This document shows, in pieces, positions 1 through 58,436 of a stretch of 64,000 nucleotides of DNA; the stretch's first letter is position 1, and every line of letters begins with the position of its first letter. Below the pieces are notes generated by a model that worked only from the letters and a program-made list of their open reading frames with translations, made no database searches and had not been told where the DNA came from. Origin of the DNA: an uncultured delta proteobacterium (GTDB lineage: Bacteria; Desulfobacterota; Binatia; UBA9968). The position numbers and the translations under genes were made by a program. The stretch is taken from contig CAVSHR010000005.1 in NCBI GenBank assembly GCA_963727625.1, forward strand, positions 224,001 to 288,000, in the 5' to 3' direction.

Positions 1-446
1 TGTTCCATCATTGACGGGGTCACTTGCTGGGTTTGCAGCAGGAACTTGAGCACTCGCTTCTCGGGCAGACGGCGCATCACGAGAGTGTATTCGGCGGGCT
101 CGCTCCATCCGCCCAGCCGCCAGCCGCTTTCGTCGAAGCAGATCGGCATCACGGCCAAATAGACCGACGGCGCCAGACGGCGGTTTAGCCGCAGTTCCTC
201 TTGCAGAAAATGCCGCCGCCGCGCCAGGGTCGAAAAATCGAGAAACGAATAGCGCACCGGCTTTTTTATTTTGTAAACCAAATCACCGACCAGAAAGACA
301 TGGGAGATATGGGTTTCCTGATGAACCACTTCATCCGCCGGCCTGGGATAGAAGACAGGCCTCAGCATCGCTGCTACGAGCTCATCCTGCGACTGTAAAC
401 CCGTGAGATTGCCGTTTGTCACGTGAACGCTCTGCAATAGGGGCAT
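1..446 (-). CDS. COG2187-type aminoglycoside phosphotransferase-like / AAA kinase protein (Rv2004c-like), N-terminal part, running off the window edge
   Basis: Not in the ORF track. Manual minus-strand translation reads MLRPVFYPRPADEVVHQETHISHVFLVGDLVYKIKKPVRYSFLDFSTLARRRHFLQEELRLNRRLAPSVYLAV, carrying the ETHIS, YKIKKPV and ELRLNRRLAP family motifs. Start is ATG 446 or GTG 422. Confidence 0.85.
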   Translation of the reverse strand, partial: MPLLQSVHVTNGNLTGLQSQDELVAAMLRPVFYPRPADEVVHQETHISHVFLVGDLVYKIKKPVRYSFLDFSTLARRRHFLQEELRLNRRLAPSVYLAVMPICFDESGWRLGGWSEPAEYTLVMRRLPEKRVLKFLLQTQQVTPSMME

Positions 447-461
447 CCTCTTGTCCACCCC

Positions 462-476
462 GCAATAACAATGCCA
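462..476 (-). promoter_or_regulatory. sigma54 (-24/-12) promoter
   Basis: Minus strand reads TGGCATTGTTATTGC (GG-N10-GC), directly upstream of the COG2187 gene. Confidence 0.7.
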
Positions 477-508
477 TGCTGAAAAATCACCACAAAATTG
501 CAGCGGCA

Positions 509-555
509 TTCCCACACCCTGGAAAAAACCCTTCTCCGAGTTGCACAAAATAGAC
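509..555. promoter_or_regulatory. putative activator binding sites (UAS)
   Basis: TTCCCA-CACC-CTGGAA at 509-524. A weak partner, GTTGCA-CAAA-ATAGAC, lies at 540-555 (+31 bp). Confidence 0.4.
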
Positions 556-727
556 ACCCAGGTGAAACCGGCGCGGGGGGACCAGTTAAAGCTACGGCGC
601 GGCAGGCGCGAAAATTAGCTCAACGAGCCGGGATCAATCCCGGACGAAACGTTGGGTAAACCCGCAGGGGGGATCGTAATGGGCTTGGAGGCGGTGAACT
701 CCCACCGCGGAATTCGGTACGGCAGGC

Positions 728-1732
728 CTAGGTAATTTCCAGTTCTTCGATCTTTCGGTAGAGCGACGACAAGCTGATGTCTAAAAGTTTCGCCGCTTCT
801 TTGCGGTCCTGCCCTGTCTGTTCGAGGGCGCGCAGAATATGCTGCTTTTCAAAGCACCGTAGCGCTTCCTTGAGGTTGAATGTGAACGCGGGGACTCCCT
901 GGCTTCCGGCAATCACCGACTGGGGCAAATCTTTGAGCGTGATTCGTTCGTCCTCGGCGAGAATCATCGTGTGCTCGATGACATTGTCGAGCTCGCGCAC
1001 ATTGCCCTTCCACGGCAGCGTCATCAACACACGCACCGCGTCCTCGTCGATGCCGGTACAGTTCTTGTTTAGCTCGGGATTATGGCGCTTGATGAAATGC
1101 TCGACCATCAGCGGGATATCCTCCGGCCGATCTTTTAGCGGCGGGATGTAGATCTCCATGATGTTGAGACGGTAAAAGAGGTCCTCGCGAAAGCGCCCGG
1201 CTTCGACTTCTTTTTTTAGATTGCGATTGGTCGCCGCGAGCACCCGAACGTCGACATGGCGCGGCGCCGTGCTGCCGATGGGCATGATATCCTTGGCTTC
1301 CAAAGCGCGCAGCAGTTTGACTTGCAGGTGCTGCGGAATTTCGCCGATCTCATCGAGGAAAATCGTTCCGCCGTGGGCTTTCTCGAACAGACCTTCCTGG
1401 TTCGCGAACGCCCCGGTGAAAGAACCCTTCATGTGGCCGAACAGGAGGCTTTCCAGCAGAGTCTCGGGCAACGCGCCACAGTTGACCGGCAGGAACAGCT
1501 TGTCCTTGCGGTCGCTGTGCGCGTGCAGCGCCAAGGCGATCAGCTCCTTGCCCGTGCCGCTGTCTCCGGTGATCAGCACCGTAGCTTGAGTGTTGGCAAC
1601 CTTTTTAACCAATTCCAAGACGTCTTTGATTGCCTTGCTCTTGCCGATGATGTTGTCGAAGTGAAATTCCATGCTGTCAAAATTCCAAGAACCCACGATG
1701 GCGACGCGTCCGGAGCCTAACATCGCTGTCAT
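728..1732 (-). CDS. sigma54-dependent transcriptional activator (AAA+ plus Fis-type HTH) with no N-terminal sensory domain
   Basis: Walker A GDSGTGKE, GSFTGA loop, Walker B IFLDEIGE, FREDLFYRLN, WKGNVREL and a C-terminal HTH. Alternative start ATG 1672. Confidence 0.95.
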   Translation of the reverse strand: MTAMLGSGRVAIVGSWNFDSMEFHFDNIIGKSKAIKDVLELVKKVANTQATVLITGDSGTGKELIALALHAHSDRKDKLFLPVNCGALPETLLESLLFGHMKGSFTGAFANQEGLFEKAHGGTIFLDEIGEIPQHLQVKLLRALEAKDIMPIGSTAPRHVDVRVLAATNRNLKKEVEAGRFREDLFYRLNIMEIYIPPLKDRPEDIPLMVEHFIKRHNPELNKNCTGIDEDAVRVLMTLPWKGNVRELDNVIEHTMILAEDERITLKDLPQSVIAGSQGVPAFTFNLKEALRCFEKQHILRALEQTGQDRKEAAKLLDISLSSLYRKIEELEIT

Positions 1733-1746
1733 ATTGGGATTTCGGC

Positions 1747-1775
1747 AAGATAAAAAGGAATTGCCAGAGTGTCAA
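1747..1775 (-). promoter_or_regulatory. sigma70-type promoter for the activator gene
   Basis: Minus strand TTGACA-N17-TATCTT. Confidence 0.55.
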
Positions 1776-1799
1776 TAATTGAAATGTTGGGTGTTAGCT

Positions 1800-2303
1800 T
1801 CAGAGTCGTTCCGCGGCTTGACGCAGCTCGGGATTGGAACAAAACTGGCGCAGCGCGGCTTTGAGCTTTTGCCGCTGCACGCTCGCCGGCACACCCAGAT
1901 TCTCCATGGTCTTGCCGACCTGGGGCCCGCCCAACTGCAGCAACTTGCCGTAGATCACGTCGATTTCCGAGCTTTCGATTTCCAGCGCAATCTTAAAAGC
2001 GTCTTCGACATCGAGCGCGGGAGTTCCCTGAGCGAGATAGCGTTGTAATCGACCGCTGAGATCCTCGGCCGTTTCGCGACTGATCATAGGATCCACCACC
2101 TCGTCCTCGTAATTGGCAATCATTGCCCGACAAGCCGCCAGGATACTGGCGTGCTGCTCTTCCTCCCGCCCCATCTCCCACCAGAAATCACGCAGCTCGG
2201 GCCGGGTTAGAAACAGATGCGAGAAACGAAAATAGATTTTAGCAACCAGCCGTTCGATCTCTGCAAAACCGATCAGGGGATCGAACGGCTCCGGCGCTAT
2301 CAT
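1800..2303 (-). CDS. ferritin-like / rubrerythrin-fold protein
   Basis: E...EEEQH motif in helix 2 and a second acidic cluster (ALEIESSE). Overlaps the upstream gene by 4 bp (ATGA). Confidence 0.7.
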   Translation of the reverse strand: MIAPEPFDPLIGFAEIERLVAKIYFRFSHLFLTRPELRDFWWEMGREEEQHASILAACRAMIANYEDEVVDPMISRETAEDLSGRLQRYLAQGTPALDVEDAFKIALEIESSEIDVIYGKLLQLGGPQVGKTMENLGVPASVQRQKLKAALRQFCSNPELRQAAERL

Positions 2304-2806
2304 GTGTTTTTTAAATTCTCCTTGAGAAATTTCAGCAGCTCGACATGCTTTTTAGAATCCCGGATCATCGCGTCGATGAGAATCTTGAAAGCTCCATGAT
2401 AGTAGCCGCTGCTCTCTTTCATGAGGGCTTTGTATTCTCTTATCCCTTCCTTTTCAAGCCGGATAAATTCCTCGGTGGCCTCGCGCAGTTTGTCGTTGAC
2501 GCTGGCGAGATCGGCAGCGCCTTCGAGGGTGCCGGCCGGTTTCGTCCAGGTGAGACTGCCCTTCAACGTCGACACCATCGCATGCACCACCGCGCGATGC
2601 TTCTCCTCGTCGGAAATGATCATCTGCATCACAAAGCGGGTCATCGGATTGGGCAGATGGGGCAACGCGTTTTTGTAAAATTCAACCGAGCGATCTTCCT
2701 TGGACTCATGGGCTTCGAATGCGTTGAGCAGCTTCTCTACCGGCGAGATCCCTTCCGCAATGCTTGCGAGCCCGAGCAAATTGCTTACATCTGCGAATTC
2801 TTCCAT
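2300..2806 (-). CDS. ferritin-like / rubrerythrin-fold protein
   Basis: Paired DEEKH and DSKKH motifs with preceding Glu residues. RBS AAGGAG. Confidence 0.8.
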   Translation of the reverse strand: MEEFADVSNLLGLASIAEGISPVEKLLNAFEAHESKEDRSVEFYKNALPHLPNPMTRFVMQMIISDEEKHRAVVHAMVSTLKGSLTWTKPAGTLEGAADLASVNDKLREATEEFIRLEKEGIREYKALMKESSGYYHGAFKILIDAMIRDSKKHVELLKFLKENLKNT

Positions 2807-3018
2807 GGCTTTTCTCCTTTTCTAGTCGTTAGATTACAGTCGGAATTTCTCCTCTCGAGCGAATTCGACAATCGTTGCCACCTAATCTCTTCGGGTCCGA
2901 TTTACCGGTAAAATGGGGAAACTCCTTTTCATCGTATTCCTGGACAAGGATTCGGTTATCGGTAGAACTTTCTTTGACCGGCTCCTTCTCCTATTTATAT
3001 TATTGCAACATAACGGCC

Positions 3019-3033
3019 GCAAAGTATATGCCA
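3019..3033 (-). promoter_or_regulatory. sigma54 promoter for the ferritin-like genes
   Basis: Minus strand TGGCATATACTTTGC (GG-N10-GC). Confidence 0.75.
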
Positions 3034-3083
3034 GAGGTAAGTAGGCCAAAAATAGACCAACATCCCCTGATGTCAAGATTGCT

Positions 3084-3130
3084 TTCTTAATCGTAGGAAC
3101 TCTTCCAGTCAATTTTCGCAGGGTTGCAAA
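3084..3130. promoter_or_regulatory. paired UAS palindromes shared by the divergent sigma54 promoters
   Basis: TTCTTA-ATCG-TAGGAA (3084-3099) and TTCGCA-GGGT-TGCAAA (3115-3130), 31 bp apart. Confidence 0.6.
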
Positions 3131-3181
3131 GAAATCCACCACGATTTGGTATTTTACCTAGAACATCGTGGATCTTTGCTC

Positions 3182-3197
3182 CGGCATGGAAATCGCT
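3182..3197 (+). promoter_or_regulatory. sigma54 promoter for pfk-gap-CBS
   Basis: CGGCATGGAAATCGCT (GG-N10-GC). Confidence 0.6.
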
Positions 3198-3246
3198 CTA
3201 AAGTACCTTGGACCCAAGCAATCAAGAATTGTTAAGGATTGAAAAC

Positions 3247-4578
3247 ATGGCGGAGCAAAACGAAAAATTGACGAGCCGACGCGGAAGCAACGTCGGCATC
3301 TTGGTCGGCGGCGGCCCGGCCCCAGGAATCAACGGCGTGATAGGCGCGGTCACTCTGGAATCGAGGACTCGCGCTTATAAGGTGATCGGCATTGCCGATG
3401 GCTTCCAGTGGCTCATGGCCGGCGATACAAGCCATGCCAGGGAGCTCAATCACGACGATGTCTCGCGCATTCATTTTCTCGGCGGCTCGGTGATAAATAC
3501 GTCGCGCGCCAACCCCACTAAGCGAATCGAAGATCTCGAACGCGTGGTCGCAACCTTGGACCGCTTGGATATCGGTTATCTCGCGACCATCGGCGGCGAC
3601 GACACTATGTTCGCCGCCGCCCAAGTGGCCAAGCAGGCGAACGGCCGAATCCGCGTGTGCCATGTGCCCAAGACCATCGATAATGACCTGCCGCTGCCCG
3701 GCGAGATCCCGACATTCGGCTTCGAAACCGCGCGCCAGATCGGCAGCGCGCTGGTGCAAAACCTGATGGAAGATTCGCGCACCACCGGGCGCTGGTACTT
3801 CGTCGTCGTGATGGGACGCTCGGCTGGCCATTTGGCCCTCGGCATCGGCAAGGCCACGGGCGCAACGCTGACGCTGATCCCCGAAGAATTTCCCGGTCCG
3901 ATTCGCATGGCCACCGTGTGCGATATCCTCGAAGGGGCGATCCTCAAACGCCAGGCGCTGTGGAACCGCTGCGACGGTGTTGCCGTAATCGCTGAAGGCT
4001 TGCTAGAGCACATGGCTGCGGAAGAACTGAGCGGCATCGAGGGTGTGCGCATCGCCCATGACAGCTACGGCCATTTGCGCCTGGCCGAAGTAGATCTCGC
4101 CTATATTTTAAAGACCCTCGTCGAACACCGCTTCGCCGGCCGGGGGGCGCCGATTGCTATCGTCCACAAAAACATCGGCTACGAGCTGCGCTGCGCCGCG
4201 CCCATCGCCTTCGACTGCGAGTATGTCCGCACCCTTGGTTACGGCGCGGTCGAGTTTTTGCTCAACCCACCCGCCGCGGCGCAAGCGCTGAACGGCGCGC
4301 TGGTTGCCCTGGTAAACGGCAAGCTCGACTATCTCGATTTTGCCAGCCTTCGAGACACCGAGACCGGCAAGACACGAGTGCGCAAGGTCGATATCGACAC
4401 GCCGTCCTACAAAGTCGCCCGCGAATACATGATTCGATTGGAACGAGAGGACTTTGCCGATCCGGAAAAGCTCCGGTTGCTCGCCCAAGCCGCATCTTCG
4501 GATAAAGCGCTCTGTTCGCCTGAACAATTTCGCGACCGCTATCAATATTTGGCCGCAGAAATTCGCGGCGGTCCATAA
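3247..4578 (+). CDS. pfp: 6-phosphofructokinase, probably pyrophosphate-dependent
   Basis: [14 protein letters not shown] (Asp at the PPi-specificity position), PKTIDND and MGRSAG motifs. Confidence 0.9.
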
Positions 4579-4594
4579 TTTAAAAGGAGAACGC

Positions 4595-5608
4595 ATGCCA
4601 ACCAGAATCGCCATCAATGGATTCGGCCGCATCGGCCGCCTGGTCCTGCGCACGATGATCGAGCGCCACAAGAAAGACTTCAGCGTCGTTGCCGTCAACG
4701 ACATGGCTGACTTAAAAACCAACGTGCACCTGTTTCGCTACGATTCCACTTACGGGATTTTCCCCGGTCAAGTCAGTGCCGGCGAAGGCGTTATGCGGAT
4801 CGATGGCAAAAACGTTACGGTTTTGAATCAAAAAGATCCAACCCGCTTGCCGTGGAGGGACCTCGCCGTCGACATCGTCATCGAATCCACCGGCGTGTTC
4901 ACCGACGGCGCCCAGGTGCGCGCCCATCTGGAAGCGGGCGCCAAGAGAGCGATCATCACTGCGCCGGCGACCAACGAAGACATCACGCTGGTCCTCGGCG
5001 TCAACGATTCCGCCTACGACCCGCGCAAGCATCACGTCGTCTCCAACGCCTCCTGCACCACCAACTGCTTGGCCCCGGTGGCCAAAGTGCTGCAAGATCA
5101 ATTCGGCGTCGAACGCGGCTTGATGACGACGATCCACTCTTACACCAACGATCAAAGGATTCTCGACCTGATGCATAAAGACCTGCGGCGAGCACGCGCC
5201 GCGGCGATGAACATCGTGCCAACCAGCACCGGCGCAGCCAAGGCCATCGGCCTGGTCATGCCGGAATTGAAGGGCAAACTGCACGGTATCTCGCTCCGAG
5301 TTCCGACTTCGACGGTCTCAGTCGTCGATCTGGTGGTCGATCTTAAAAAGAGCGCCAGCGTCGAGGCGATCAACGCGGCGCTGAAAAAATACGCTGACGG
5401 AAAAATGAACGGCATTCTTAGCTATTGCGACGAGCCCTTGGTTTCCAGCGATTTTCGTGGTAATCCCGCTTCCTCGACCGTTGACGGCCTATCGACCGTG
5501 GTGCTCGAAGGCAAAATGGCCAAAGTGCTTTCTTGGTACGATAACGAATGGGGCTACAGTTGCCGCGTCGGCGACCTCGCTAAACTGATGGTGGAAAAAG
5601 GACTGTAG
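4595..5608 (+). CDS. gap: type I glyceraldehyde-3-phosphate dehydrogenase
   Basis: [21 protein letters not shown] and [18 protein letters not shown] before ATG 4595. Confidence 0.97.
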
Positions 5609-5621
5609 GAGGAAACAATCC

Positions 5622-6011
5622 ATGATTGCCAAGCATATCATGACCAAGGACATCATCACGGTCAGTCCGACCATGACGATAAAAACTCTCGCCATGACGC
5701 TGATCAAAAATCAGATCAGCGGGGCCCCGGTCGCCGGAAAGAACGGCAAGATCATCGGCGTGGTCTCGGAAGCGGATATCGTTGCCAAAAAAGGCAAAGC
5801 CGTCAAATCCATCATGAGCAAAAAGATCATTAGCGTCGCCGAAGAGACCTCTGTCGAAGAGATCGCCGAGCTCATGACCACGCATAACATCAAACGCGTT
5901 CCGGTGATGCGCGGCGAGGAAGTGGTCGGCATCGTCAGTCGCGCCGATATCGTCAGCGCCATCGCCCGCGGCGAACATGTCGCGATCCATACGCCGGTTT
6001 ACGATCTATAA
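5622..6011 (+). CDS. stand-alone CBS-domain (Bateman module) protein
   Basis: Two CBS repeats (ISGAPV...GVVSEADI and IKRVPV...GIVSRADI). RBS AGGAGG. Confidence 0.9.
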   Translation: MIAKHIMTKDIITVSPTMTIKTLAMTLIKNQISGAPVAGKNGKIIGVVSEADIVAKKGKAVKSIMSKKIISVAEETSVEEIAELMTTHNIKRVPVMRGEEVVGIVSRADIVSAIARGEHVAIHTPVYDL

Positions 6012-6144
6012 ATACCCCGCGCGCCTTGTTTTTGAGATCTCGCCTTTTCGCGCCCGGCCTGGTCGAAGACCCGGCTCGCATGTTTGTGAGTCCTAATTTC
6101 ATGTTAAACCTTCCCCATTCCATCGTTGAGCTTCGCCGTCCTCG

Positions 6145-6191
6145 TTCCTAAGCCTAAGAAGCACGAGGCCGATGTTTCCAAGCATTAGGAA
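6145..6191. promoter_or_regulatory. paired UAS palindromes
   Basis: TTCCTA-AGCC-TAAGAA (6145-6160) and TTCCAA-GCAT-TAGGAA (6176-6191), 31 bp apart. Confidence 0.65.
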
Positions 6192-6248
6192 TTCCCCCAT
6201 CGCGCTTCCGATTAGCCTGTAAATTCCTTGGCGTTTTTAGCCTTTTGC

Positions 6249-6263
6249 TGGCATTTACTTTGC
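6249..6263 (+). promoter_or_regulatory. sigma54 promoter for the BoxB-like gene
   Basis: TGGCATTTACTTTGC (GG-N10-GC). Confidence 0.75.
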
Positions 6264-6333
6264 GAAGCTATGGGCGCAAATGCGCTGCAATTTCGGCCGG
6301 CGCGAAATCATTCAGACTTAAACAGGAGGGTTC

Positions 6334-7443
6334 ATGGCAGAACGCATCGCGAACTTCGATGATTGGAAAGATTTGTTTTACAAATGGCAAAAGGACATCG
6401 GCTTCGACGCCTCGCTGGTGAAAGATTACAAGTTCGATTCGATTTATGATGAGGGGACCAGTCCAATCATCGAGTTCGGCGACTTCAAAGGACGCAAGAA
6501 ATTCGAAAAAGTTTTGGACGTGCCAACCCAGGACATGCGCGACGCGCTCCTGCATTTGATTTTCTATCAGGGCGACACCGAGTTCGGCTCATCCGAGCAA
6601 CAGCGCATGCTGATCGACAACGCGCCCACCGATTATGACCGCCAGTGCCTGTTGCGGGTGATGCGCGAAGAACAGCGCCATGGCTGGCAAATGTGCCATG
6701 TGCTGATTAACAACTTCGGCGATTCGGGAAAGTTGGAGGCGCAAAAGCTGCTCGAACGGCGCGCCTATAAAAACACCCGTCTGCTTGGCGCGTTCAATCG
6801 CAACGTCGATGACTTTATCGACTTCGTCACCTACACCTGTTTCATCGACCGTGACGGCAAATACCAACTCACCATGCTCCATCATTCGAGCTTCGCGCCG
6901 CTCTCGCGCAGCATGGGACCCATGCTTAAAGAAGAAGCGTTTCATCTGTTCACCGGCCAGACCGGCCTGTCGCGCATCATCAAGGCCGGAAAAGTTCCCA
7001 TCGAAATTGTCCAGAGATATCTAAACAAGTGGCTCTCCACCGGTTACGACTTGCTGGGCAAAGACCGCTCCGGCTCCGCGGCGCGTTTCTACCGCTGGGG
7101 CTTCAAAGGCAGATTCGACGAAGCCACCGCCAAGGAACCACCCAAGGATCTCGAACGGCTGAACGAGGAAGCCAGACTGCTTTACTACAAAGAAGACTGC
7201 GAGATCATCGATTCGTTCAATCGCTTGATCCCCGAAGGCAAACCGAAGCTGCGCGCGCCCGATCTGAAGTTCAACCGGCAGATCGGCGAGTACGCCGGCA
7301 AGCACTACAGCGTCGAGGGCAATCCCCTAACCGAGGGCGAATACCAAGCCCATCTCGACAAAGTGCTGCCCGGACCCAAAGACCGCAAGAGCCTCGAGCC
7401 GATTTTCAAGACCGGCGACTGGATGAGCCCAGGCGCAGCCTGA
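6334..7443 (+). CDS. BoxB/PaaA-like diiron acyl-CoA epoxidase-family protein
   Basis: QGDTEFGSSEQQR, EEQRH, DRDGKYQL and EEAFH match the BoxB pattern (GDTE..SVEQQR, EEGRH, DRDGK.QL, EEAHH). Confidence 0.8.
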   Translation: MAERIANFDDWKDLFYKWQKDIGFDASLVKDYKFDSIYDEGTSPIIEFGDFKGRKKFEKVLDVPTQDMRDALLHLIFYQGDTEFGSSEQQRMLIDNAPTDYDRQCLLRVMREEQRHGWQMCHVLINNFGDSGKLEAQKLLERRAYKNTRLLGAFNRNVDDFIDFVTYTCFIDRDGKYQLTMLHHSSFAPLSRSMGPMLKEEAFHLFTGQTGLSRIIKAGKVPIEIVQRYLNKWLSTGYDLLGKDRSGSAARFYRWGFKGRFDEATAKEPPKDLERLNEEARLLYYKEDCEIIDSFNRLIPEGKPKLRAPDLKFNRQIGEYAGKHYSVEGNPLTEGEYQAHLDKVLPGPKDRKSLEPIFKTGDWMSPGAA

Positions 7444-7470
7444 ACGGTGCTGCCAGGAAGCCTTCCATAA

Positions 7471-7650
7471 AATGGCAAGCACTACCGGCTGCCGACCGCG
7501 GCCCAATGGGAATATGCCGCGCGCGCGGAAACTGAAACTGCCTACTGGTGGGGTAACGAGATGAAGCGAGGCTTAGCTAACTGTGTTGGCTACGGCACCC
7601 AGTGGGACAGAAAATAGACTGCGCCGGTATTTCAACCGAGCACTTTCAGT
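7471..7650 (+). pseudogene. remnant of an FGE-sulfatase (SUMF1/EgtB-like) domain gene
   Basis: The frame from 7471 reads [52 protein letters not shown]. It matches the RLPTEAEWEYAAR motif, has no start codon and has an in-frame TAG at 7615. Confidence 0.8.
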
Positions 7651-7764
7651 CCAACACGATTTATTCCCCTTGGCGATAATCCGGCGCTATCAAGCGACTT
7701 GTTTGCCTGCAAGCTTTGCGGGATAAAACACTAAACCTTGAGCATCTCTATCGTTAAAATGACC

Positions 7765-8167
7765 ATGAGCACGACGGTTTTCACCGAGATAGAGTTCTGG
7801 ATGTTGATCGTCTTTGCGGTTATATTCCCCTTCGCTATCGACAGATTACTTCTCGCGAAGAAAGCCATCTCTCGCAAGACAGTTCTAGCTTTCGGGCTCG
7901 CGCCTGTCGTGATTGCTGGAGTGGATTGATGTCTACCTCTTGCAAAGCTTGGCCGCCGCGGCAAAGGTCTCTCCATCTCTCGTGGATGATGCAGTCTTTT
8001 CATCCGAGTTATCCCTTGCGCTCTATCTGCTGCCCGCCATGTTCGGAGGCATTGGCATCAACGTTATTTCCCATATTCTTGTGCGGCATCTTGTTGAGGC
8101 CGAAAGCAGTATGAGCAGAAGCGTCGATATGCCTAACTTGTCGTTTGTGCGGAGTCTTGGGATCTGA
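7765..8167 (+). pseudogene. frameshifted small membrane protein
   Basis: Two overlapping hydrophobic ORFs (...VVIAGVD* and IDVYLLQSLA...) join across GTGGATTGATGTC at about 7921-7933 into one protein with about 3 TM segments. Confidence 0.6.
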
Positions 8168-8366
8168 ACCCACAATCGCGACCTAATAGCGACGGCTGAG
8201 CTTTGCGTTAACCGTTACCGTTTTCCACAACCCACGACCCCCGAGATTCCGAAACTGAGCACCCAGCCCTACTTCGACGCGAAGCTTTGCCGGTTTCGCC
8301 CTTCGGTTTCACTGCTTCCCGCTTCGAAGATTGCGCGCCGCGTCACCGCCGCCAGGCTTGATGAAA

Positions 8367-8413
8367 ATCTAAAAGTTGCGAATCCGGCGGCTGAGAATTC
8401 GCAATATTGAATG
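8367..8413. promoter_or_regulatory. paired UAS palindromes
   Basis: ATCTAA-AAGT-TGCGAA (8367-8382) and TTCGCA-ATAT-TGAATG (8398-8413), 31 bp apart. Confidence 0.5.
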
Positions 8414-8452
8414 GCGCCGGGCGAATTCCCACGTGAACTTGGCAGGCGCCGC

Positions 8453-8467
8453 TGGCACATAGATTGC
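8453..8467 (+). promoter_or_regulatory. sigma54 promoter
   Basis: TGGCACATAGATTGC, a consensus TGGCAC-N5-TTGC. Confidence 0.8.
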
Positions 8468-8511
8468 GGTTCTCTTGAGTAGTCCGAATGCAACGGAAGG
8501 GAGGGTAGGAT

Positions 8512-8790
8512 ATGTACACTCCACTCATCACCATTTCAGCGATCCTTGCGGCCGGAATTCTGTTTGTCCTTGCGCCGGTCGCGGTCGACACCTACCGGCG
8601 CTATCGCAACCGCAAAGTCGTCATCTGCCCGGAAAACAAGAACTTCGCCGAAGTAGAGCTAAAAGCGGGCCGCGCCGGTCTCATGTCGGCGTTGGGCAAA
8701 TCGAAACTCGCGGTGAAATGGTGCAGCCGCTGGCCGTACAAAAAAGGATGCGCTGAAGAGTGCGTGAAAGAGAACTGGACCGCGCCATAA
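8512..8790 (+). CDS. small membrane-anchored protein with four cysteines, function unknown
   Basis: N-terminal TM helix followed by CPE...CSRWP...CAEEC. RBS GGAGG. Confidence 0.75.
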   Translation: MYTPLITISAILAAGILFVLAPVAVDTYRRYRNRKVVICPENKNFAEVELKAGRAGLMSALGKSKLAVKWCSRWPYKKGCAEECVKENWTAP

Positions 8791-9007
8791 GGAGCACGCG
8801 GGCAGACCTCCAGGTAGTCGGCCTAGCTCCGGCCAACAGCGCCACTCGATGAAATGACCGCCGGATTACCGCGGTGGTCGACTTTTCCCCGAGCGTGCTA
8901 CCGCGTGGGTTAGATAGGCGCGTCAGCGGTAAAATTGAAAGTGCCGGGCGCGCTGCGGCTTGGGGTCGGCTTTGACGAGAATCCGTCTTTCCTGGCGGTT
9001 TTGATTC

Positions 9008-10078
9008 TCATCGAGCCGGCAGCGGTCCGCCGCCGGCCATTTGCTTATACAACTGAATAACTTCTTTATCTCGCGGCAATTCTTTGATCGCCTGTTCCAG
9101 TTCCTCGCCGCTAAGTGGGTTTGGAGGATCACCCATCAACTTTTTATACTCGGCGGGAAACTCCGGGTCGGCAAACGCCTTGCGCATCGCCGCGCGTATG
9201 ATCTTTACCGGCTCTTTCCGTGTTCCAGGAGGGAAGAGATACGGCCAGCGCGGGTATTGAAAGGCACGAAACATGGCCAGCAGCTTTCGTTCTTTATCTG
9301 ACTTGGCAAAGCTCTCCAATTGGGGCAGATCTTTAAAGGCGGGATGAGAACGTCCTTTCGGAACCGTCAGAGTCGCGTGAGGGTGGATCAGCTTCTTTTC
9401 GATCCATTCCGGTTTTTCGACGACAAAGCGCGCCGCACCGGTGACATGAGCATCCAATTCGCCGCGTTCGAGCCCGATGTAAATCTCCGGACCGGTAAAA
9501 CCGGTGACGAACTTAGGATCCTTCAAGCCGAGCACGTAGGCTACCATGCGCGCGGTGACATAGACCGGGTGGCCAACCGCGTGCGCGCCAAACCTGACGC
9601 CGCTTTTGGCTTGCAGTTTCGCCATACTGTCCAGTCCGGCTTCCGCCTTGGTGTAAAACACGTAAGGATCGCCTGTATCCGTAGAGCCAAGGTAGATGAA
9701 TTTATCGAGATCGTATTGACTGCCGGGTAGACCGAGAATCGGTCCGACGACAAGCCCCGCGCCGATCGATCCAATCGTTAACCCGTCGGGCTTCGTCGAG
9801 CTGAAAAGCATGTTCGCGGCTTTTCTACCGGCGGCGCCCGGCACGAAATCGATCATCAAAGTCGGATGACCTGGGATATGCTTCGCCAACGTATGCATCA
9901 GCGCCCGGGTCTGAAATTCGCCTGAGCCGCCGGGGCCGCCGCCGCGGATGATCTTGATCGTCTTGCCTTTGTAGAAGTCGCCCTGAGCAAGGGCATCGCC
10001 CGACGGTAGGAATAACAACAGCGCGAGCACCATCCCGAGCACAGACGCTGGCAACGTCGACCCACTATTCTTCTTCAT
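9008..10078 (-). CDS. Bug/TctC-family tripartite tricarboxylate transporter substrate-binding protein
   Basis: Signal peptide, FYKGKTIKII, PGAAG, PDGLTIG and DPEF motifs. Confidence 0.85.
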   Translation of the reverse strand: MKKNSGSTLPASVLGMVLALLLFLPSGDALAQGDFYKGKTIKIIRGGGPGGSGEFQTRALMHTLAKHIPGHPTLMIDFVPGAAGRKAANMLFSSTKPDGLTIGSIGAGLVVGPILGLPGSQYDLDKFIYLGSTDTGDPYVFYTKAEAGLDSMAKLQAKSGVRFGAHAVGHPVYVTARMVAYVLGLKDPKFVTGFTGPEIYIGLERGELDAHVTGAARFVVEKPEWIEKKLIHPHATLTVPKGRSHPAFKDLPQLESFAKSDKERKLLAMFRAFQYPRWPYLFPPGTRKEPVKIIRAAMRKAFADPEFPAEYKKLMGDPPNPLSGEELEQAIKELPRDKEVIQLYKQMAGGGPLPAR

Positions 10079-10292
10079 AAACACCCCCCACATGCCGTGA
10101 GATAATGAATTCTGGGTTCTATCGGCGGTTCGGTATCGTCTCGATGGCTGCGATTATATTGTTCGCAGATCCTAAAGAAAGAGGGCGGCCAACTTTCCCG
10201 TAACATGGCATCCAGGGTCGCGACTCTGACGCACGTTTGGCAATAGTGAAGCCGCTTTTCGGATCGCACGGTGCCGAAACTTTTGCCGGCGG

Positions 10293-11717
10293 TCAGAGCC
10301 CCTTCTTCATCTTCAGCGAAGTCAAGAGGGGGATCACGCTGATGCCGAGCGCAAACAGGTAGGTCACGTTCACCGAAGCGACGAAAACCTGCGTGTCGCC
10401 GGGGTTGGGCGTGGTACCGGGAATCCCCGAGTAGTAGCGGAAGGCCAAGGTCAGGAAAATCCCGCTGAGCGATATTCCGAGCATTTGACCCAGGCCGAAG
10501 ATCCCGTTGATGATGCCGATCGCCGTGCCCCAATTTTCTTTGGGGAGCGAGCCGATCATCACCGCCTGCGACGGAGTATTGAACATTGCCGATCCGACGC
10601 CGGTCAGGGCGAGCAGGAGCGCGGGCAAGATCCAATGCGAGTCGGGACGCAGGTTGGTGCCGATCAAGAAACTCGTCATCAGGGTGAGCACGCCCAGAAT
10701 CAATAGAAAGCGCGCTCCGATCCGATCGGTCAGCGCGCCGCTTACCGGCGAGATCACCATGCTAAGCAACGACGGGGCGAGAAACATCAGCCCCATGAAC
10801 GATGGAGAGAGCTTGAGCACGTCCTGAAGATAGAAAGGCGTAATGAACGTCGTGAGGCCTTGAGTGATACAGCACATCAACAGACCCACCGAGCCGAATT
10901 TAAACACCGGCACCGAGAAAAACGACAGATTGATCATCGGGCTTCGGGTCTTCTTTTCGTGTGCAATAAATCCCCAGAGCGCGCCGATAAAGACCATGAC
11001 CAAAAGCGTCTGGTTGCCGGTGCCAATGACCCGCGCAACTTTTTGATCCAGCAGCAGGGTGACCAGAATCGTCAGAGCGAGAAAGAGCAACGCGCCCTGG
11101 TAATCGACAGCTTGCGGTCGAGAAGTCGTTGACGGCACGGCGCGTCCGGTCAGGTAGCAAAGCACCGATCCAACCACACTCGGCACAAACAAGAAGAAAA
11201 AAATCCCCCGCCAGTGCACCCAATCGATGATCAAGCCGCCGATCGGCGGACCGATAAAAAAACCGAACTGGTGCGACATGGCCATGAGACCCTGGGCCTT
11301 TCCTTCCGACCCCGCCGGCATGGCCCGGAACGCCAAGGTGCGTCCGGATGACTGAATCATCGCGCCGCCGACGCCTTGCAGGAAGCGAAACAGAATCAAT
11401 TGCAATACGTTCTGCGACAGGCCGCAGAGCAGCGAGCCGACGGCCATGACAGCCATGCCAATACCGAAAGTTTTGTGATGGCCGTAGATATCGCCCAGCC
11501 GCCCGCAAATCACGCCCAGGCCGATCCCCGCCATCTGATAGACGATGAGCGCCCACGAGATTCCAAGGATGTCCGTCCCCAGCGCCGAGGCCAGTGTCGG
11601 CATCGAGATGATGAACACGCGCGTTGAGATGCCCGCGACGGTGACCCCGATGACCGAGTTGATCAGAGTAAGCCTGCGCAGCTTGTCATGCGCATGGGGT
11701 TGATCTTGCAAAATCAA
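10293..11717 (-). CDS. MFS transporter, DHA2-like (about 14 TM)
   Basis: Motif A GRLGDIYGHHK, FRFLQGVGGA and GPPIGG. Hydrophobic throughout. Confidence 0.9.
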   Translation of the reverse strand: MILQDQPHAHDKLRRLTLINSVIGVTVAGISTRVFIISMPTLASALGTDILGISWALIVYQMAGIGLGVICGRLGDIYGHHKTFGIGMAVMAVGSLLCGLSQNVLQLILFRFLQGVGGAMIQSSGRTLAFRAMPAGSEGKAQGLMAMSHQFGFFIGPPIGGLIIDWVHWRGIFFFLFVPSVVGSVLCYLTGRAVPSTTSRPQAVDYQGALLFLALTILVTLLLDQKVARVIGTGNQTLLVMVFIGALWGFIAHEKKTRSPMINLSFFSVPVFKFGSVGLLMCCITQGLTTFITPFYLQDVLKLSPSFMGLMFLAPSLLSMVISPVSGALTDRIGARFLLILGVLTLMTSFLIGTNLRPDSHWILPALLLALTGVGSAMFNTPSQAVMIGSLPKENWGTAIGIINGIFGLGQMLGISLSGIFLTLAFRYYSGIPGTTPNPGDTQVFVASVNVTYLFALGISVIPLLTSLKMKKGL

Positions 11718-11961
11718 ATTTCAAACCTTTCGTGCCGGTCAAAATACCCTCGCCGGTTCTCAGACCCTCGGCGTCTCCGCCGCCGCTTCGACAACGGTCG
11801 ATCGGCATAGCACGGAGACGAAATATGAGAAGGACCGGGACAGGACTGGAGGCTTCGATCCTATAGATTTGCGGCAGGTTTTTGTAGCCTTTCACAAATC
11901 ATTTCAAAGTCGCTCAACGCCGCATTCGACGTGGCGACTACCAGGTCCGGCCAAAAATATT

Positions 11962-12008
11962 TTTGCAAAGTTAAGAACGCCCGGAGCGCTATTTCCTAAA
12001 CGAGGGAC
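11962..12008. promoter_or_regulatory. paired UAS palindromes
   Basis: TTTGCA-AAGT-TAAGAA (11962-11977) and TTCCTA-AACG-AGGGAC (11993-12008), 31 bp apart, followed by an AT-rich tract before the promoter. Confidence 0.55.
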
Positions 12009-12083
12009 TGGGAGTTCGGCGAACAATTGTTTAAACAGTTAAATTTATTACATGAATCGAGTTCCAGGACCCTTCGATGGGCT

Positions 12084-12099
12084 TGGCGCAGTCCTTGCT
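12084..12099 (+). promoter_or_regulatory. sigma54 promoter
   Basis: TGGCGCAGTCCTTGCT (GG-N10-GC). Confidence 0.7.
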
Positions 12100-12226
12100 C
12101 AATTGAATTAGCGGGTTGCATTACAGTCCATTGTTCTTGTTGACGAGCTGGACACAGGTCGATAGCCCACGGATTTTTAAGACGACAATAACCAGGCCCA
12201 ACCGAACGAGAAAGGAGACCGCCAAC

Positions 12227-12508
12227 TTGAACGCCGCCGTTACCGCTGTCACGAATCTAGCATCAGTATTGACCAACAAAGAGGGTGCGCCTCCTAAGAA
12301 GATCTATAAGTCAGTGCCGGAAAGCTACAAGGTTCTGACGGAAACCAAGTACCACAAAGTCGTCTCGGATCTTGAATCGATTCTGCTCGACATCAGCACG
12401 GACGGGGTCGGCATCAACACCCCGGACGGAAAAATCAGCGCGTCAACGCTCAAGAGCTGGGCCGAGTCTTTGCGAGACGCTCTGGAGACCCTGTCGAAAG
12501 CTCAATGA
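12227..12508 (+). CDS. hypothetical protein (about 93 aa)
   Basis: RBS AAGGAG before TTG 12227, downstream of a sigma54 promoter. No recognisable motif. Confidence 0.55.
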   Translation: MNAAVTAVTNLASVLTNKEGAPPKKIYKSVPESYKVLTETKYHKVVSDLESILLDISTDGVGINTPDGKISASTLKSWAESLRDALETLSKAQ

Positions 12509-12551
12509 GCGGGAGGGCGTCGCCCCCCATCTTCAAGCCAAGTGCCCGCGC

Positions 12552-12974
12552 TCAACTGCCGCGGGTCCGGTTTTGCGGCCCGACTTTTTCGATCGTGACG
12601 CGGATGGCGATGCGCCCTTCGGCGAGGGTTTTTTTTCGGATATCGTCCCAGTTTTCCGGCTCGCCGCGGATCTGGCGATGCCAGTCGAGCACGATGTCCA
12701 TGGCTTGCGGATGGGACACCACTTCGGCCCTGCCGTCGATCTGAATATAGTTGGAGCCGTTGAACTTCTCTCCATAAACCAGCAGAGAAACTTCCGGATT
12801 GCGCCGAATATTTTTCACCTTGTAAGTGTTATCCCGCGCCGTGATCGTCACCCTGCCATCGGCGCCGATGACCGGCGACACCAGCGTCATCTGCAGCGAC
12901 CCGTCGCGCTTGCGCGCCACCAATACACCGTGATGATTATGCTTCAAAAACTCCTGTGCCTCGGAAATATCCAT
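12552..12974 (-). CDS. PPOX-class (putatively F420-dependent) split-barrel oxidoreductase
   Basis: VLVARKRDGSLQ, KVKNIRRNPEVSL and YIQIDGRAEV. Confidence 0.85.
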   Translation of the reverse strand: MDISEAQEFLKHNHHGVLVARKRDGSLQMTLVSPVIGADGRVTITARDNTYKVKNIRRNPEVSLLVYGEKFNGSNYIQIDGRAEVVSHPQAMDIVLDWHRQIRGEPENWDDIRKKTLAEGRIAIRVTIEKVGPQNRTRGS

Positions 12975-13207
12975 GGATCCTCCGCAAAATTATGTTCCGC
13001 CGATCTTAGCTAATTTGCCCCGCCGCTGCCAGACAGAGCTCCCAGCTGAACCGCCACCCCGCCAGCTCCGATCGTTCGAGCGGCACGCTCCAGTCGTCAT
13101 TTAAAAACCGGCGGCATATTCACCGCAACCAAAACAATGTTGCAACTTAGCAATTTTTATTTTCTACTCCCGGCTGGTGCATTGAACTCATGAGGAGGAC
13201 GAGAGCA

Positions 13208-14032
13208 ATGGCAAGGGCAAATAATGAACATCCGGGAATAGGCGAAGGACGGGACCGGCTCGTAGGCAAAGTCGCCATCGTCACCGGTGCCAACAGTGGC
13301 ATCGGCCGCGCCACGGCGCGCCTTTTCGCTCGCGAAGGCGCGCAGGTGGTCTGCTGCGATATTCAGGAGCAGTTGAGCCCGCGCATCGACGACCTGATCG
13401 CGCAGGACGGCGGTTCCGCCCTGTTTCTAAAGACCGATGCCACCAGTGAAGCGGACTGGACCAGGACCGTAAGTTCGACACTGGAGCGTTTCGGCGATCT
13501 GGATATTCTCTATAACAACGCCGGCGGCGGCGTGCGCGGCAAGATCGGCAAGCTCAAGAACGACGAGTGGCACTTCATCATGAACTTGAATCTCAACTCG
13601 ATCTACTACGGCTCGCGCGCCGTGTTGCCCCACTTCTTAGCCAAACGCCGGGGCAACATCATCAACACCGCCTCGACGTTCGGCATTCTCGCCTCGGAAG
13701 AGAATCCTGCCTATTGCGCGACCAAGGCGGCGGTGATCAACCTTACGCGCCAGATCGCCCTCGATTATGGAACCCAGGGAATCCGCGTCAACTGCATCTG
13801 TCCCGGCGCCACCGACACACCACGATTCAGGGGCGTGCCGCCACGGGCGATGTTCGAAAGCGGCTTGCCGCCGGAGCAGATTGACCGGCTATCGAAACTC
13901 AACCGCGCCCTCAACCGCCTTGCCCGGCCGGAAGAGATCGCCTACGGCGTGCTCTTTCTCGCCTCGGACGAGGCCTCCTTCGTCACCGGCAGCGCACTGG
14001 TGGTCGACGGCGGCCAGACCATCGATGCGTAG
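13208..14032 (+). CDS. short-chain dehydrogenase/reductase
   Basis: TGANSGIG, NNAG, YCATK and VDGG. Confidence 0.93.
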   Translation: MARANNEHPGIGEGRDRLVGKVAIVTGANSGIGRATARLFAREGAQVVCCDIQEQLSPRIDDLIAQDGGSALFLKTDATSEADWTRTVSSTLERFGDLDILYNNAGGGVRGKIGKLKNDEWHFIMNLNLNSIYYGSRAVLPHFLAKRRGNIINTASTFGILASEENPAYCATKAAVINLTRQIALDYGTQGIRVNCICPGATDTPRFRGVPPRAMFESGLPPEQIDRLSKLNRALNRLARPEEIAYGVLFLASDEASFVTGSALVVDGGQTIDA

Positions 14033-14181: not shown

Positions 14182-14634
14182 TCACGCTGCGGTATTGCCG
14201 CCGCGGCTGCCGCTGGGAAACATCGAGCCCAAGTACTCGCCGAGGATGCGACAAACGTCGATGGCCGACAGGATGCCGGCCAGTTTGCCCTGGCGCTGCA
14301 CGATCACCGATCCGATGCGCCGCTTGGCCATTTCCATAACCACGGCGTCGAGCGGCGCCCGGAAGGGCACGATATAGGGTTGGGTCACCATGATATGGCG
14401 CGCCTGAATCGTGTCTTTCTCCGCTTGCGGCGTGTCGCGTTTGACATGGTGGTGCAGGTCGCGCTCGGACACGATGCCGATGACCTTGCCGTTCTCCTGC
14501 ACAGGCAAATGGCGGATGCCGTGCTCATCCATCATCCGCTCCAGGGTCGTTGCCGTGTCGTCGACCTCGACGAAGTAAGGAAAGGAAGTCATCACGGCAC
14601 CGACGATGGGCATCTTTTTTTGTCGTTTTTTCAT
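14182..14634 (-). CDS. CBS-domain protein
   Basis: IRHLPV...GIVSERDL and IGSVIV...GILSAIDV. Confidence 0.9.
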   Translation of the reverse strand: MKKRQKKMPIVGAVMTSFPYFVEVDDTATTLERMMDEHGIRHLPVQENGKVIGIVSERDLHHHVKRDTPQAEKDTIQARHIMVTQPYIVPFRAPLDAVVMEMAKRRIGSVIVQRQGKLAGILSAIDVCRILGEYLGSMFPSGSRGGNTAA

Positions 14635-15228: not shown

Positions 15229-16437
15229 TTATTTCACTTCGCGCCGCACCAGCCGCGCCGTCTCTCGGGCAATGATCACGCCTTCGTCGCTGGGTATCAC
15301 GTAAGCGCCGATGCGCGACCCGGGCGCTGAGATACAGGCTTCGCTGCCGACAGCCGCGGCGTTGTTTTTTTCGTCGAGGATCAAGCCGCACCAATCCATG
15401 CCGGCATAAATTTTTTCGCGCACCGAGGGCGCGTTTTCGCCGATGCCGCCGCTGAAGATCACCGCCTGCGCGCCGTCGAGAGCGGCCAAGTAGGCGCCCA
15501 AATATTTGCGCGCCCGGTAGCAAAAAAGATCCACCGCAACGCGCGCGCGCGGATCGCGATCATAGACGGCGAGCAGCTCTCGCATATCGCTGGAGATGCC
15601 CGATAAGCCGAGCAGACCCGAGCGCTTGTTGAGCCAATTTTCCACTTCAACGGCGTCGACATTTTCCACCCGCGCCAGAAAGCCCACCAGCGCCGGATCG
15701 AGATCGCCCGAGCGCGTGCCCATCACCAGACCCTCGAGCGGCGTGAAACCCATCGACGTATCGACCGATCTACCGCCGCGGATCGCGCATGCCGAGCAGC
15801 CGTTGCCGAGATGCATGGTGACGAGATTGATCTGTTCGACGGGGATGCCGCTTATCTCGCTATAGCGCAGCAAGGAAAAATGATGCGCCAGGCCATGGAA
15901 GCCGTAACGGCGGAGCGAATGTTTTTCCGAGAGCTCGCTCGGAATCGCGTAAAGCGCGGCGATCTGCGGCATGGTCTGATGAAACGACGTGTCGAACGCC
16001 GCCGCCATCGGCACGCGGGCGCCGAGAATTTTCCGCATCGCATGGATGCCGCTCACGGCCGCCGGGTTGTGCAGCGGCGCCAACTCGTTCAATGATTCGA
16101 TTTGCCCCAGCACCGCGTCGCTGATCAGCACCGTCGAGGCGAACAAATTCCCGCCATGGACCACGCGGTGGCCCACCGCATCGATTTCGAACTTGCGGGG
16201 CGCGGCCGAGTCCGCCAGGCCGAGCCGAGTGACGATTAGACGTACCGCCGCGTCGTGGTCCGCCGCAGCGCATCTTTCTTCGGTGAGCGGAGTAGCATCG
16301 GCATACCCGATGCGCAGCGCTGCACGAGCACCGATCTCATCGACGATTCCCGAGACCAGCTTGCGCTCGGCACCGGCAGTCTCGATGATCTGAAACTTTA
16401 CCGAAGAGCTGCCGCAATTGAGCACCAGTACGTTCAT
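15229..16437 (-). CDS. ackA: acetate kinase
   Basis: LNCGSSSVK, VGHRVVHGG, LAPLHNP, FDTSFH, HLGNG and TSMGFTPLEG. Confidence 0.96.
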   Translation of the reverse strand: MNVLVLNCGSSSVKFQIIETAGAERKLVSGIVDEIGARAALRIGYADATPLTEERCAAADHDAAVRLIVTRLGLADSAAPRKFEIDAVGHRVVHGGNLFASTVLISDAVLGQIESLNELAPLHNPAAVSGIHAMRKILGARVPMAAAFDTSFHQTMPQIAALYAIPSELSEKHSLRRYGFHGLAHHFSLLRYSEISGIPVEQINLVTMHLGNGCSACAIRGGRSVDTSMGFTPLEGLVMGTRSGDLDPALVGFLARVENVDAVEVENWLNKRSGLLGLSGISSDMRELLAVYDRDPRARVAVDLFCYRARKYLGAYLAALDGAQAVIFSGGIGENAPSVREKIYAGMDWCGLILDEKNNAAAVGSEACISAPGSRIGAYVIPSDEGVIIARETARLVRREVK

Positions 16438-58372: not shown

Positions 58373-58436
58373 CAGTGCACTTTGCCGGTATTGGAAAAAT
58401 GCCGGCCGGATTTTGCGACGCTGCGAGCCGAGATCG

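Follow-up and report, generated by a model that had tools for sequence, protein, structure and literature searches.

Tandem 31-bp enhancer pairs mark a class-wide sigma-54 regulon in Binatia with a probable role in low-oxygen dormancy

A 64,000-nucleotide (nt) window from the genome of an uncultured Binatia bacterium (G000:C5:224001-288000; genome 6.6 Mb, 98% complete) carries six sigma-54 promoters accompanied by pairs of similar sites that start 31 base pairs (bp) apart. Our analysis shows that these pairs belong to a real sigma-54 regulon that is conserved across the class and that is larger, in this genome, than the six window promoters. We read it as a low-oxygen dormancy programme under one clade of NtrC-family activators, with a FixL-type kinase as input and an activator paralogue held by a ferritin-fold protein, FerB; binding and expression are predicted, and we give this reading a probability of about 0.7. 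The relatives compared were 18 congeneric genomes and 151 genomes of the class, several of them incomplete assemblies.

The promoter boxes and enhancer pairs of the window are given below. Boxes were scored on an ad hoc, home-made scale built on the -24/-12 promoter consensus, and the gene calls are likewise home-made.

461..477, minus strand: sigma-54 -24/-12 box of the COG2187-type gene (ATG 443); TGGCA and TTGC invariant in 12 aligned promoters
3018..3034, minus strand: sigma-54 box of the ferA-ferB-activator unit (ferA start 2806)
3181..3197, plus strand: sigma-54 box of the unit for phosphofructokinase (PFK), glyceraldehyde-3-phosphate dehydrogenase (GAPDH) and a CBS protein (PFK start 3247); weak by consensus, yet conserved
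6248..6264, plus strand: sigma-54 box before the BoxB/PaaA-like gene (start 6334)
8452..8468, plus strand: sigma-54 box before open reading frame (ORF) 8512
12083..12099, plus strand: sigma-54 box before the gene with TTG start 12227
509..555, no strand: enhancer pair; proximal site 509 good (10.1 bits), distal site 540 decayed and under threshold
3084..3130, no strand: 31-bp enhancer pair (score 30.3), common to two divergent promoters
6145..6191, no strand: 31-bp enhancer pair (score 26.2) before the BoxB/PaaA-like gene
8367..8413, no strand: 31-bp enhancer pair (score 21.6) before ORF 8512
11962..12008, no strand: 31-bp enhancer pair (score 21.5) before ORF 12227

All six GG-N10-GC boxes described in an earlier note on this DNA are present, each facing a gene on its own strand (6/6). 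The weakest, at 3181 (5.5 on the ad hoc scale), keeps its GGCA and CGC columns invariant in 12/12 aligned promoters. The claimed start-to-start spacing of 31 bp is exact in all four full pairs (3084/3115, 6145/6176, 8367/8398 and 11962/11993), and the 3084 site does have the same 6-bp half-sites as the 6145 site, in reverse. The sites had been called 16-bp palindromes; they stand as sites, but their symmetry is imperfect, with 3 to 6 of 8 arm pairs matching. A weaker pair had also been proposed at 509/540, of which 509 scores as a site and 540 is decayed, at the position where relatives keep a distal site 30-31 bp away. The refined consensus from our iterated set is TTY(G/T/C)CA-N4-TG(C/A/G)RAA.

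The 31-bp spacing is far from what chance would give. For these tests we used a matrix trained only on the eight sites of the window and scored outside the training region, which keeps them non-circular. It finds 17 pairs at 31 bp, against 0-5 for any other spacing in the range 17-60 bp. At a second threshold the same matrix gives 25 pairs at 31 bp beyond that region, of which 20 have a -24/-12 box 20-90 nt away. Such a box accompanies 12 of 153 pairs of other spacings and 53 of 3000 intergenic positions drawn at random. The enrichment beside promoter boxes that the earlier note had proposed to test is present. So is the excess over shuffled intergenic DNA, with 23 real pairs against a mean of 1.35 (maximum 6) in 20 dinucleotide shuffles. 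An iterated matrix trained on the 31-bp pairs, whose counts are descriptive only, gives 35 pairs genome-wide, 31 of them with a box 15-100 nt away; 16 of the 35 lie in a 200-kb island on contig C12 and 7 in C5:200-240 kb. A mobile repeat was considered and rejected, the 15-nt spacers being unrelated (mean 5.0/15 identical; 11 or more identical positions in 1 of 595 comparisons), and so was a structured RNA, with no Rfam match in window positions 1-14000. Two near-identical pairs in a copper/cytochrome region, C4:108251 and C4:120768, have spacers that are alike too and probably represent a duplicated promoter.

The pairs are conserved well beyond this genome. A degenerate 31-bp pattern (hereafter the strict pattern) occurs in 17 of 18 congeneric genomes (145 matches) and in 50 of 151 class genomes; set at 36 bp, it gives 5 matches in 4 congeneric genomes. 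Around homologues of ferB (76 loci), we counted 82 pairs at 31 bp, 24 at 30 bp, 7 at 32 bp and 0-3 at other spacings. In these 82 pairs from other genomes, 73 of which have a box, the distance from the end of the pair to the promoter GG peaks at 39-41, 51-53, 59-63 and 72-75 nt, in clusters about one helical turn apart. The intergenic region between ferA and PFK, aligned from 12 genomes, keeps the pair and the PFK box around a variable spacer, with a 1-nt gap in one genome. Pairs also precede 3/3 orthologues of the BoxB-like gene (0/4 paralogues), 3/3 orthologues of ORF 12227, and 2/4 orthologues of ORF 8512 with enough flank, a fifth having only 60 nt.

The candidate activator of the window had been named in the earlier note as the 728-1732 protein, and our annotation is as follows.

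728..1672, minus strand: receiver-less sigma-54 activator, AAA+ domain with GSFTGA and Fis-type helix-turn-helix (HTH), by Pfam; likely start ATG 1672

This protein fits the role, with a probable start at ATG 1672 and no receiver domain, but it is not the sole candidate, because the genome has a second member of the same clade on C12. Among the 27 sigma-54 activators of the genome, the window activator is closest to C12:383547-384896 (55.8%), and these two alone (2/27) have the recognition helix SLS[ST]LYRK; both carry GSFTGA and HTH_8. Together with their class-wide orthologues they form one clade in a quick tree (support 100 by the Shimodaira-Hasegawa-like approximate likelihood ratio test, SH-aLRT). 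The C12 regulator consists of a receiver, AAA+ and Fis HTH and lies within the C12 island described above (16 of the 35 pairs); between its own -24/-12-like box and start codon there is a pair. In other families the clade gene lies among universal stress protein (USP), CBS and ATPase genes, often adjoining a pair. Of the class genomes with a clade member, 45 of 81 have the motif, as do 5 of 70 without one, a comparison in which kin are not independent; four of those five have a single match. By their nearly identical recognition helices, the two activators fit the site as its predicted binders. The proposal that one activator co-controls these promoters thus survives in amended form: a single specificity is well supported, and it is carried by two candidate proteins.

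Across 10 congeneric genomes the receiver-less activator occurs at 11 loci with 78-93% identity, one copy having an internal stop, and its conservation without a receiver across relatives led us to reject a truncation artefact. In G018 (L062), which has only two pairs, a frameshift or stop interrupts the gene close to its 3' end. A third paralogue type (L033, L034, L050, L051 and L071), about 60% identical and with no pair within 1.5 kb, has the helix SRSSLYRK and may recognise another site.

The gene before the C12 regulator (C12:385087-387672; L009:15087-17672, minus strand) encodes a GAF-PAS-PAS-PAS kinase whose last PAS domain, directly before the kinase core, matches B. japonicum FixL with an E value of 5.9e-28. 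This domain keeps the columns of FixL H200, R206 and R220, which we take, in numbering and role, to be the heme histidine and the two distal arginines. The R220 column is the one changed to alanine in PDB entry 1y28. By these residues the C12 kinase would be a FixL-type oxygen sensor, with heme binding and O2 response predicted. A second kinase with the same type of PAS and the heme-site columns likewise kept (C9:315936-318278; L099:5936-8278, minus strand; HAMP-PAS-PAS) has no clade regulator adjoining it here, and its homologues precede the regulator in five relatives. A FixL-type kinase lies directly upstream of the regulator in 6 of 10 congeneric orthologues, with the histidine and both arginines in 6/6, and of the congeners that have a receiver-bearing regulator, 9 of 10 also have a FixL-type PAS, against 0 of 8 of those without the regulator.

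Elsewhere in the class the sensor can differ. Among 20 neighbourhoods from other class genomes, 10 contain a protoglobin kinase and 4 a FixL-type PAS kinase; of the latter, one has tyrosine for the first arginine, and another is 45% identical and 7 kb away. In the present, 98% complete genome we found no protoglobin kinase, either as a PF11563 match or by tblastn. That two unrelated types of O2 sensor stand beside one activator clade is our strongest argument for oxygen as the signal. Passages of PMC13327599 state that O2-bound heme keeps FixL inactive.

The genes behind the pairs describe what such a signal would control. We annotated 224 proteins, picked from 21 regions around most pairs; those of the window are listed here, apart from the activator above.

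3..443, minus strand: COG2187-type kinase (phosphotransferase plus AAA_33), 5' part; runs past the window start, with AAA_33 and weak APH matches on the continuation (L001)
1800..2303, minus strand: FerB, ferritin-fold protein, predicted activator partner (anti-activator); model predicted local distance difference test (pLDDT) 83.8
2300..2806, minus strand: FerA, rubrerythrin-like, first gene of the ferA-ferB-activator unit; PF02915 just above cut-off
3247..4578, plus strand: pyrophosphate (PPi)-dependent PFK; NF041103 577.2 bits, cut-off 550
4595..5608, plus strand: type I GAPDH; TIGR01534 above cut-off
5622..6011, plus strand: CBS-pair protein; PF00571
6334..7443, plus strand: BoxB/PaaA-like di-iron protein; PF05138, TIGR03225 213 bits
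8512..8790, plus strand: small membrane-anchored Cys-rich protein, no named family; homologues in 5/5 genomes searched
12227..12508, plus strand: 93-residue protein, no named family; TTG start behind a strong ribosome-binding site (RBS)

The COG2187-type gene comes after the activator gene in many relatives. In FerA, the motifs DEEKH and DSxKH are invariant in 11 sequences. We rejected BoxB equivalog identity for the product of 6334..7443, as its TIGR03225 score lies below the cut-off of 499. An Atlas search with the ORF 8512 protein gave only unnamed clusters. The last gene had been assigned a start at 12116, which we replace by TTG 12227 (93 residues): homologues occur in 3/5 genomes searched, and all three keep the RBS and TTG. 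Between the BoxB-like gene and ORF 8512, window positions 7440-8170 hold short, broken-looking ORF fragments. A weaker pair at 58381-58427 (15.9 at 31 bp, 20.3 at 30 bp) has no -24/-12 box found nearby, and a CBS gene (14182-14634) and an acetate kinase gene (15229-16437, minus strand) have no upstream pair at the thresholds used; CBS proteins and acetate kinase are usual members of such regulons.

Genome-wide, the genes downstream of pairs encode USPs, HSP20s, CBS proteins, an S30EA-cold-shock protein, archease-RtcB, a hemerythrin, ribonucleotide reductase, an M50-CBS protease, cation ATPases, two pyruvate:ferredoxin oxidoreductase sets, a pyruvate dehydrogenase-type set and an ATP synthase operon, together with MtrA/MtrB-like and NrfD-type electron-transfer units, BcrAD/HGD-D proteins, isocitrate lyase and malate synthase. 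Nicotinate phosphoribosyltransferase is preceded by a pair just below cut-off (18.8). The ATP synthase operon (L006:3003-9203, on C12; order beta-epsilon-...-a-c-b-alpha-gamma), which by gene order we take to be N-ATPase-like, lies downstream of an HSP20 and three USP genes behind a pair. Two further regions behind pairs, L015:6560-10707 and L018:6252-12881, hold BcrAD/HGD-D genes and a xanthine-oxidase-family set with CoA ligases, and these targets possibly serve anaerobic aromatic or hydroxyacyl-CoA metabolism.

FerB, encoded directly upstream of the receiver-less gene in 11/11 congeneric loci, is the most novel element that we propose: a predicted ferritin-fold anti-activator. Its best structural match is the ferritin-like TM1526 (Z 14.4, root-mean-square deviation 2.5 over 139 residues), a fold call that rests on VIA-align, where a helical bundle needs about Z 13. 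Foldseek with either model gave no match at E of 0.001 or below, and a sequence search of the PDB returned nothing credible and no solved relative; the nearest Atlas cluster is commonest in Binatota. E17, E48, E49, H51, E110, E113 and Q143 are invariant in 39 sequences, and a second ExxH is absent. Across the 76 ferB loci, an activator gene follows in 47 (45 receiver-less, 2 with a receiver), and 7 are cut off. A complex model of FerB with the activator AAA+ domain scored 0.80, against 0.00 for the best control, with runs agreeing in at least 75% of contacts and a partner pLDDT of at least 77; of 157 solved complexes 116 attain the score mark, as do 2 of 215 mismatched pairs, a calibration only roughly applicable to these alignments. 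The modelled contacts fall on activator residues 63-75, 84-91 (the FTGA loop) and 218-237, where FerB would be placed to block sigma-54 contact or ring assembly. An apparent FerB-activator fusion (P0001), a candidate Rosetta-stone link, was rejected as a frameshift artefact, joined only through an out-of-frame stretch.

The FerB module also occurs apart from the kinase-coupled regulator. G007 (98% complete), G012 and G015 have the module with 4-10 pairs, and no receiver-bearing clade member or FixL PAS was found in these incomplete assemblies. At L119 and L160, receiver-bearing activators follow ferB within an otherwise receiver-less subclade, likely the ancestral state. In G053, a distant FerB homologue (L249:7806-8267; 28%) lies downstream of a receiver-bearing activator, near FixL-PAS kinase, COG2187, CBS, USP and HSP20 genes.

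We propose that dimers of one NtrC-family activator clade bind in tandem at the 31-bp pairs, which would then be upstream activator sequences, and that members of this clade would turn on about 30-40 sigma-54 promoters for dormancy and microoxic metabolism when oxygen falls. The FixL-type heme-PAS kinase, active when its heme is O2-free, would phosphorylate the receiver-bearing C12 activator; in other Binatia families a protoglobin kinase would be paired with the same clade instead. The two sites of a pair, and the promoter with them, would share one face of the helix, as the spacings already show in part. A second input is inferred with less weight: the regulon would induce its own receiver-less paralogue in a positive feedback, and FerB would bind the AAA+ domain of this paralogue over the FTGA loop and hold it off, probably under control of the FerB metal site. 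Taken to its full extent, this gives one enhancer with two independent oxygen inputs. One would be a heme kinase of interchangeable type (FixL-PAS or protoglobin), working through the receiver-bearing activator, and the other FerB, as a metal-centre O2- or iron-sensing anti-activator, with the FerB module alone running the regulon in some genomes. We hold this fuller version tentatively and think it has somewhat less than an even chance of being right; if true, sigma-54 activators would gain a new class of in-trans regulator, and the switch would lock itself.

Several observations weigh against a low-oxygen programme with a FerB-held activator. Six of the 20 class neighbourhoods have no heme kinase within 10 kb. 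Targets including a fatty-acid desaturase, BoxB/PaaA-like proteins, copper-region genes and a Tct transporter have no obvious low-oxygen fit. No strict pattern match occurs in 36 of 81 clade-positive class genomes, nor in G016, which has the FerB module. G045 has ten near-perfect pairs (on C14, C26, C48, C64 and others) and no clade member found, its gene being missing or a different activator being at work. For FerB, 22 of 76 loci have no activator downstream despite room, and the controls of the complex model were proteins other than its close cousins, FerA and the C12 activator. The predicted interface shows no excess of positions peculiar to the receiver-less clade (3/21, p=0.59), and on the FerB side it is no better conserved than the remainder of the protein (p=0.25).

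Both null interface tests fit an account in which the sites and regulon are real and the kinase-coupled C12 regulator alone acts on them, the receiver-less protein being a mere amplifier or competing repressor, and FerA and FerB being regulon members for routine iron or peroxide handling that make no contact with the activator. So do the 13 loci with ferA-ferB and no activator and the 22 of 76 ferB loci that lack it, and ferritin-like proteins are expected in such a regulon. We nonetheless consider it unlikely, in view of the three genomes (G007, G012 and G015) that keep pairs and the FerB module with no receiver-bearing member or FixL PAS found, and of a complex model that passed its controls. 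A general stress or energy-limitation programme, in which oxygen is one signal or not the main one, seems to us less probable again: the extra GAF, PAS or HAMP domains of the kinases, and the chaperones, copper-region genes and lipid enzymes among the targets, point that way, but heme O2 sensors of two unrelated types beside the clade in 14 of 20 neighbourhoods, and a target set that matches hypoxia-induced sets, argue for oxygen. Very improbable, in our view, is that the pairs are mobile repeats or are bound by a factor outside the clade, whether another activator or a repressor. G045 is the case in its favour; against it stand the co-occurrence of motif and clade, the pairs next to the clade gene in other families, the unrelated spacers, the lack of an Rfam match in window positions 1-14000, and the absence of a Fnr-type box (TTGA-N6-TCAA) within 120 nt of any of the 35 pairs (0/35).

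If the low-oxygen reading is right, the enhancer pairs give a functional lead for many unannotated targets. Binatia are widespread and have been described as not yet in culture (PMC8262859), so a readable enhancer code would predict falling-oxygen genes in any Binatia genome, and transcripts of the targets could serve as in-situ markers of falling oxygen. Should FerB prove to be an anti-activator, regulation would join the roles of the ferritin fold.

Our literature searches, which did not extend to figures or most subscription papers, returned no description of the motif or of any Binatia sigma-54 regulon, and the searchable text of a genome-wide sigma-54 survey (PMC12316311) has no match to 'Binat'. 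The earlier note knew of no described regulon with this motif and membership; the motif part of that statement stands within the literature searched, and the part on membership and logic does not, given the parallels below with NmpR, DosR and lxa.

For FerB, the parallels are PspF-PspA and HrpRS-HrpV, where passages of PMC7057263 describe an activator that has no regulatory domain and is inhibited in trans, and NifL-NifA, in which the activator is also inhibited in trans (PMC12998190). The window activator likewise lacks a regulatory domain in cis and has a neighbour protein predicted on its AAA+ domain; the partner here is a ferritin-fold protein, and its inhibitory action is read from the predicted interface only.

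For the kinases, the parallel is FixL-FixJ (passages of PMC13327599; PDB entry 1dp6), with the PAS directly before the kinase core and the heme histidine and distal arginine columns kept. The kinases here differ by their extra GAF, PAS or HAMP domains, and the neighbouring regulator is a sigma-54 activator, whereas FixJ is a receiver with a LuxR HTH. The gene after the C12 kinase, the only place where FixJ was sought, encodes a receiver, AAA+ and Fis HTH and is not of FixJ type.

In membership, the regulon resembles the DosR set of Mycobacterium tuberculosis and the lxa set of Burkholderia cenocepacia, a likeness at the level of Pfam families. We take Rv2004c to be a COG2187-type protein and Rv2630 an archease. 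Passages of PMC5309233 list for DosR USPs, RtcB, a B12-dependent ribonucleotide reductase, a phosphoribosyltransferase, nicotinamide recycling, PfkB, Rip3 and RafH, and those of PMC3721108 list for lxa USPs, alpha-crystallin, ribonucleotide reductase, PFK and a cation ATPase under a TGA-N6-TCA motif. Shared with one or the other, as far as these passages go, are USPs, alpha-crystallin, ribonucleotide reductase, cation ATPase, phosphofructokinase, RtcB, phosphoribosyltransferase, nicotinate recycling, an M50 protease and a ribosome hibernation factor, as well as the clustering of genes in islands. The passages place control with DosR or an Anr/Fnr-like motif there, in contrast to sigma-54 and enhancer pairs here, and DosR has PfkB where this regulon has a PfkA-family PPi-PFK. 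This suggests a third way of controlling the DosR/lxa dormancy gene set, through sigma-54 and a sensor of FixL or globin type.

The closest working parallel is NmpR of Myxococcus xanthus, described in passages of PMC11841059 and PMC6211767 as an NtrC-like activator encoded downstream of a protoglobin kinase and acting at seven promoters, through GCGCA-N5-TGCGC sites 14-15 nt apart, on CBS, USP, hemerythrin and P-type ATPase targets. In those passages NmpRSTU shares with the Binatia system an NtrC-like activator, sigma-54 promoters, tandem dyads about three turns apart, a heme O2-sensing kinase, self-activation and all four of these target types, and protoglobin kinases stand beside the clade in 10 of 20 Binatia neighbourhoods. 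The differences are the site (an N4 core with TT/AA edges and a 31-bp period here), the scale (about 35 pairs here against seven promoters there) and the sensor, this genome having FixL-type PAS domains and no protoglobin found; a receiver-less paralogue or ferritin partner does not appear in the NmpR passages. In two homologue searches no named NmpR was among the 120 matches listed for each. Because of the N4 site and the lack of a protoglobin found in the genome, we do not file the system as Nmp. Common descent with NmpR is nevertheless possible.

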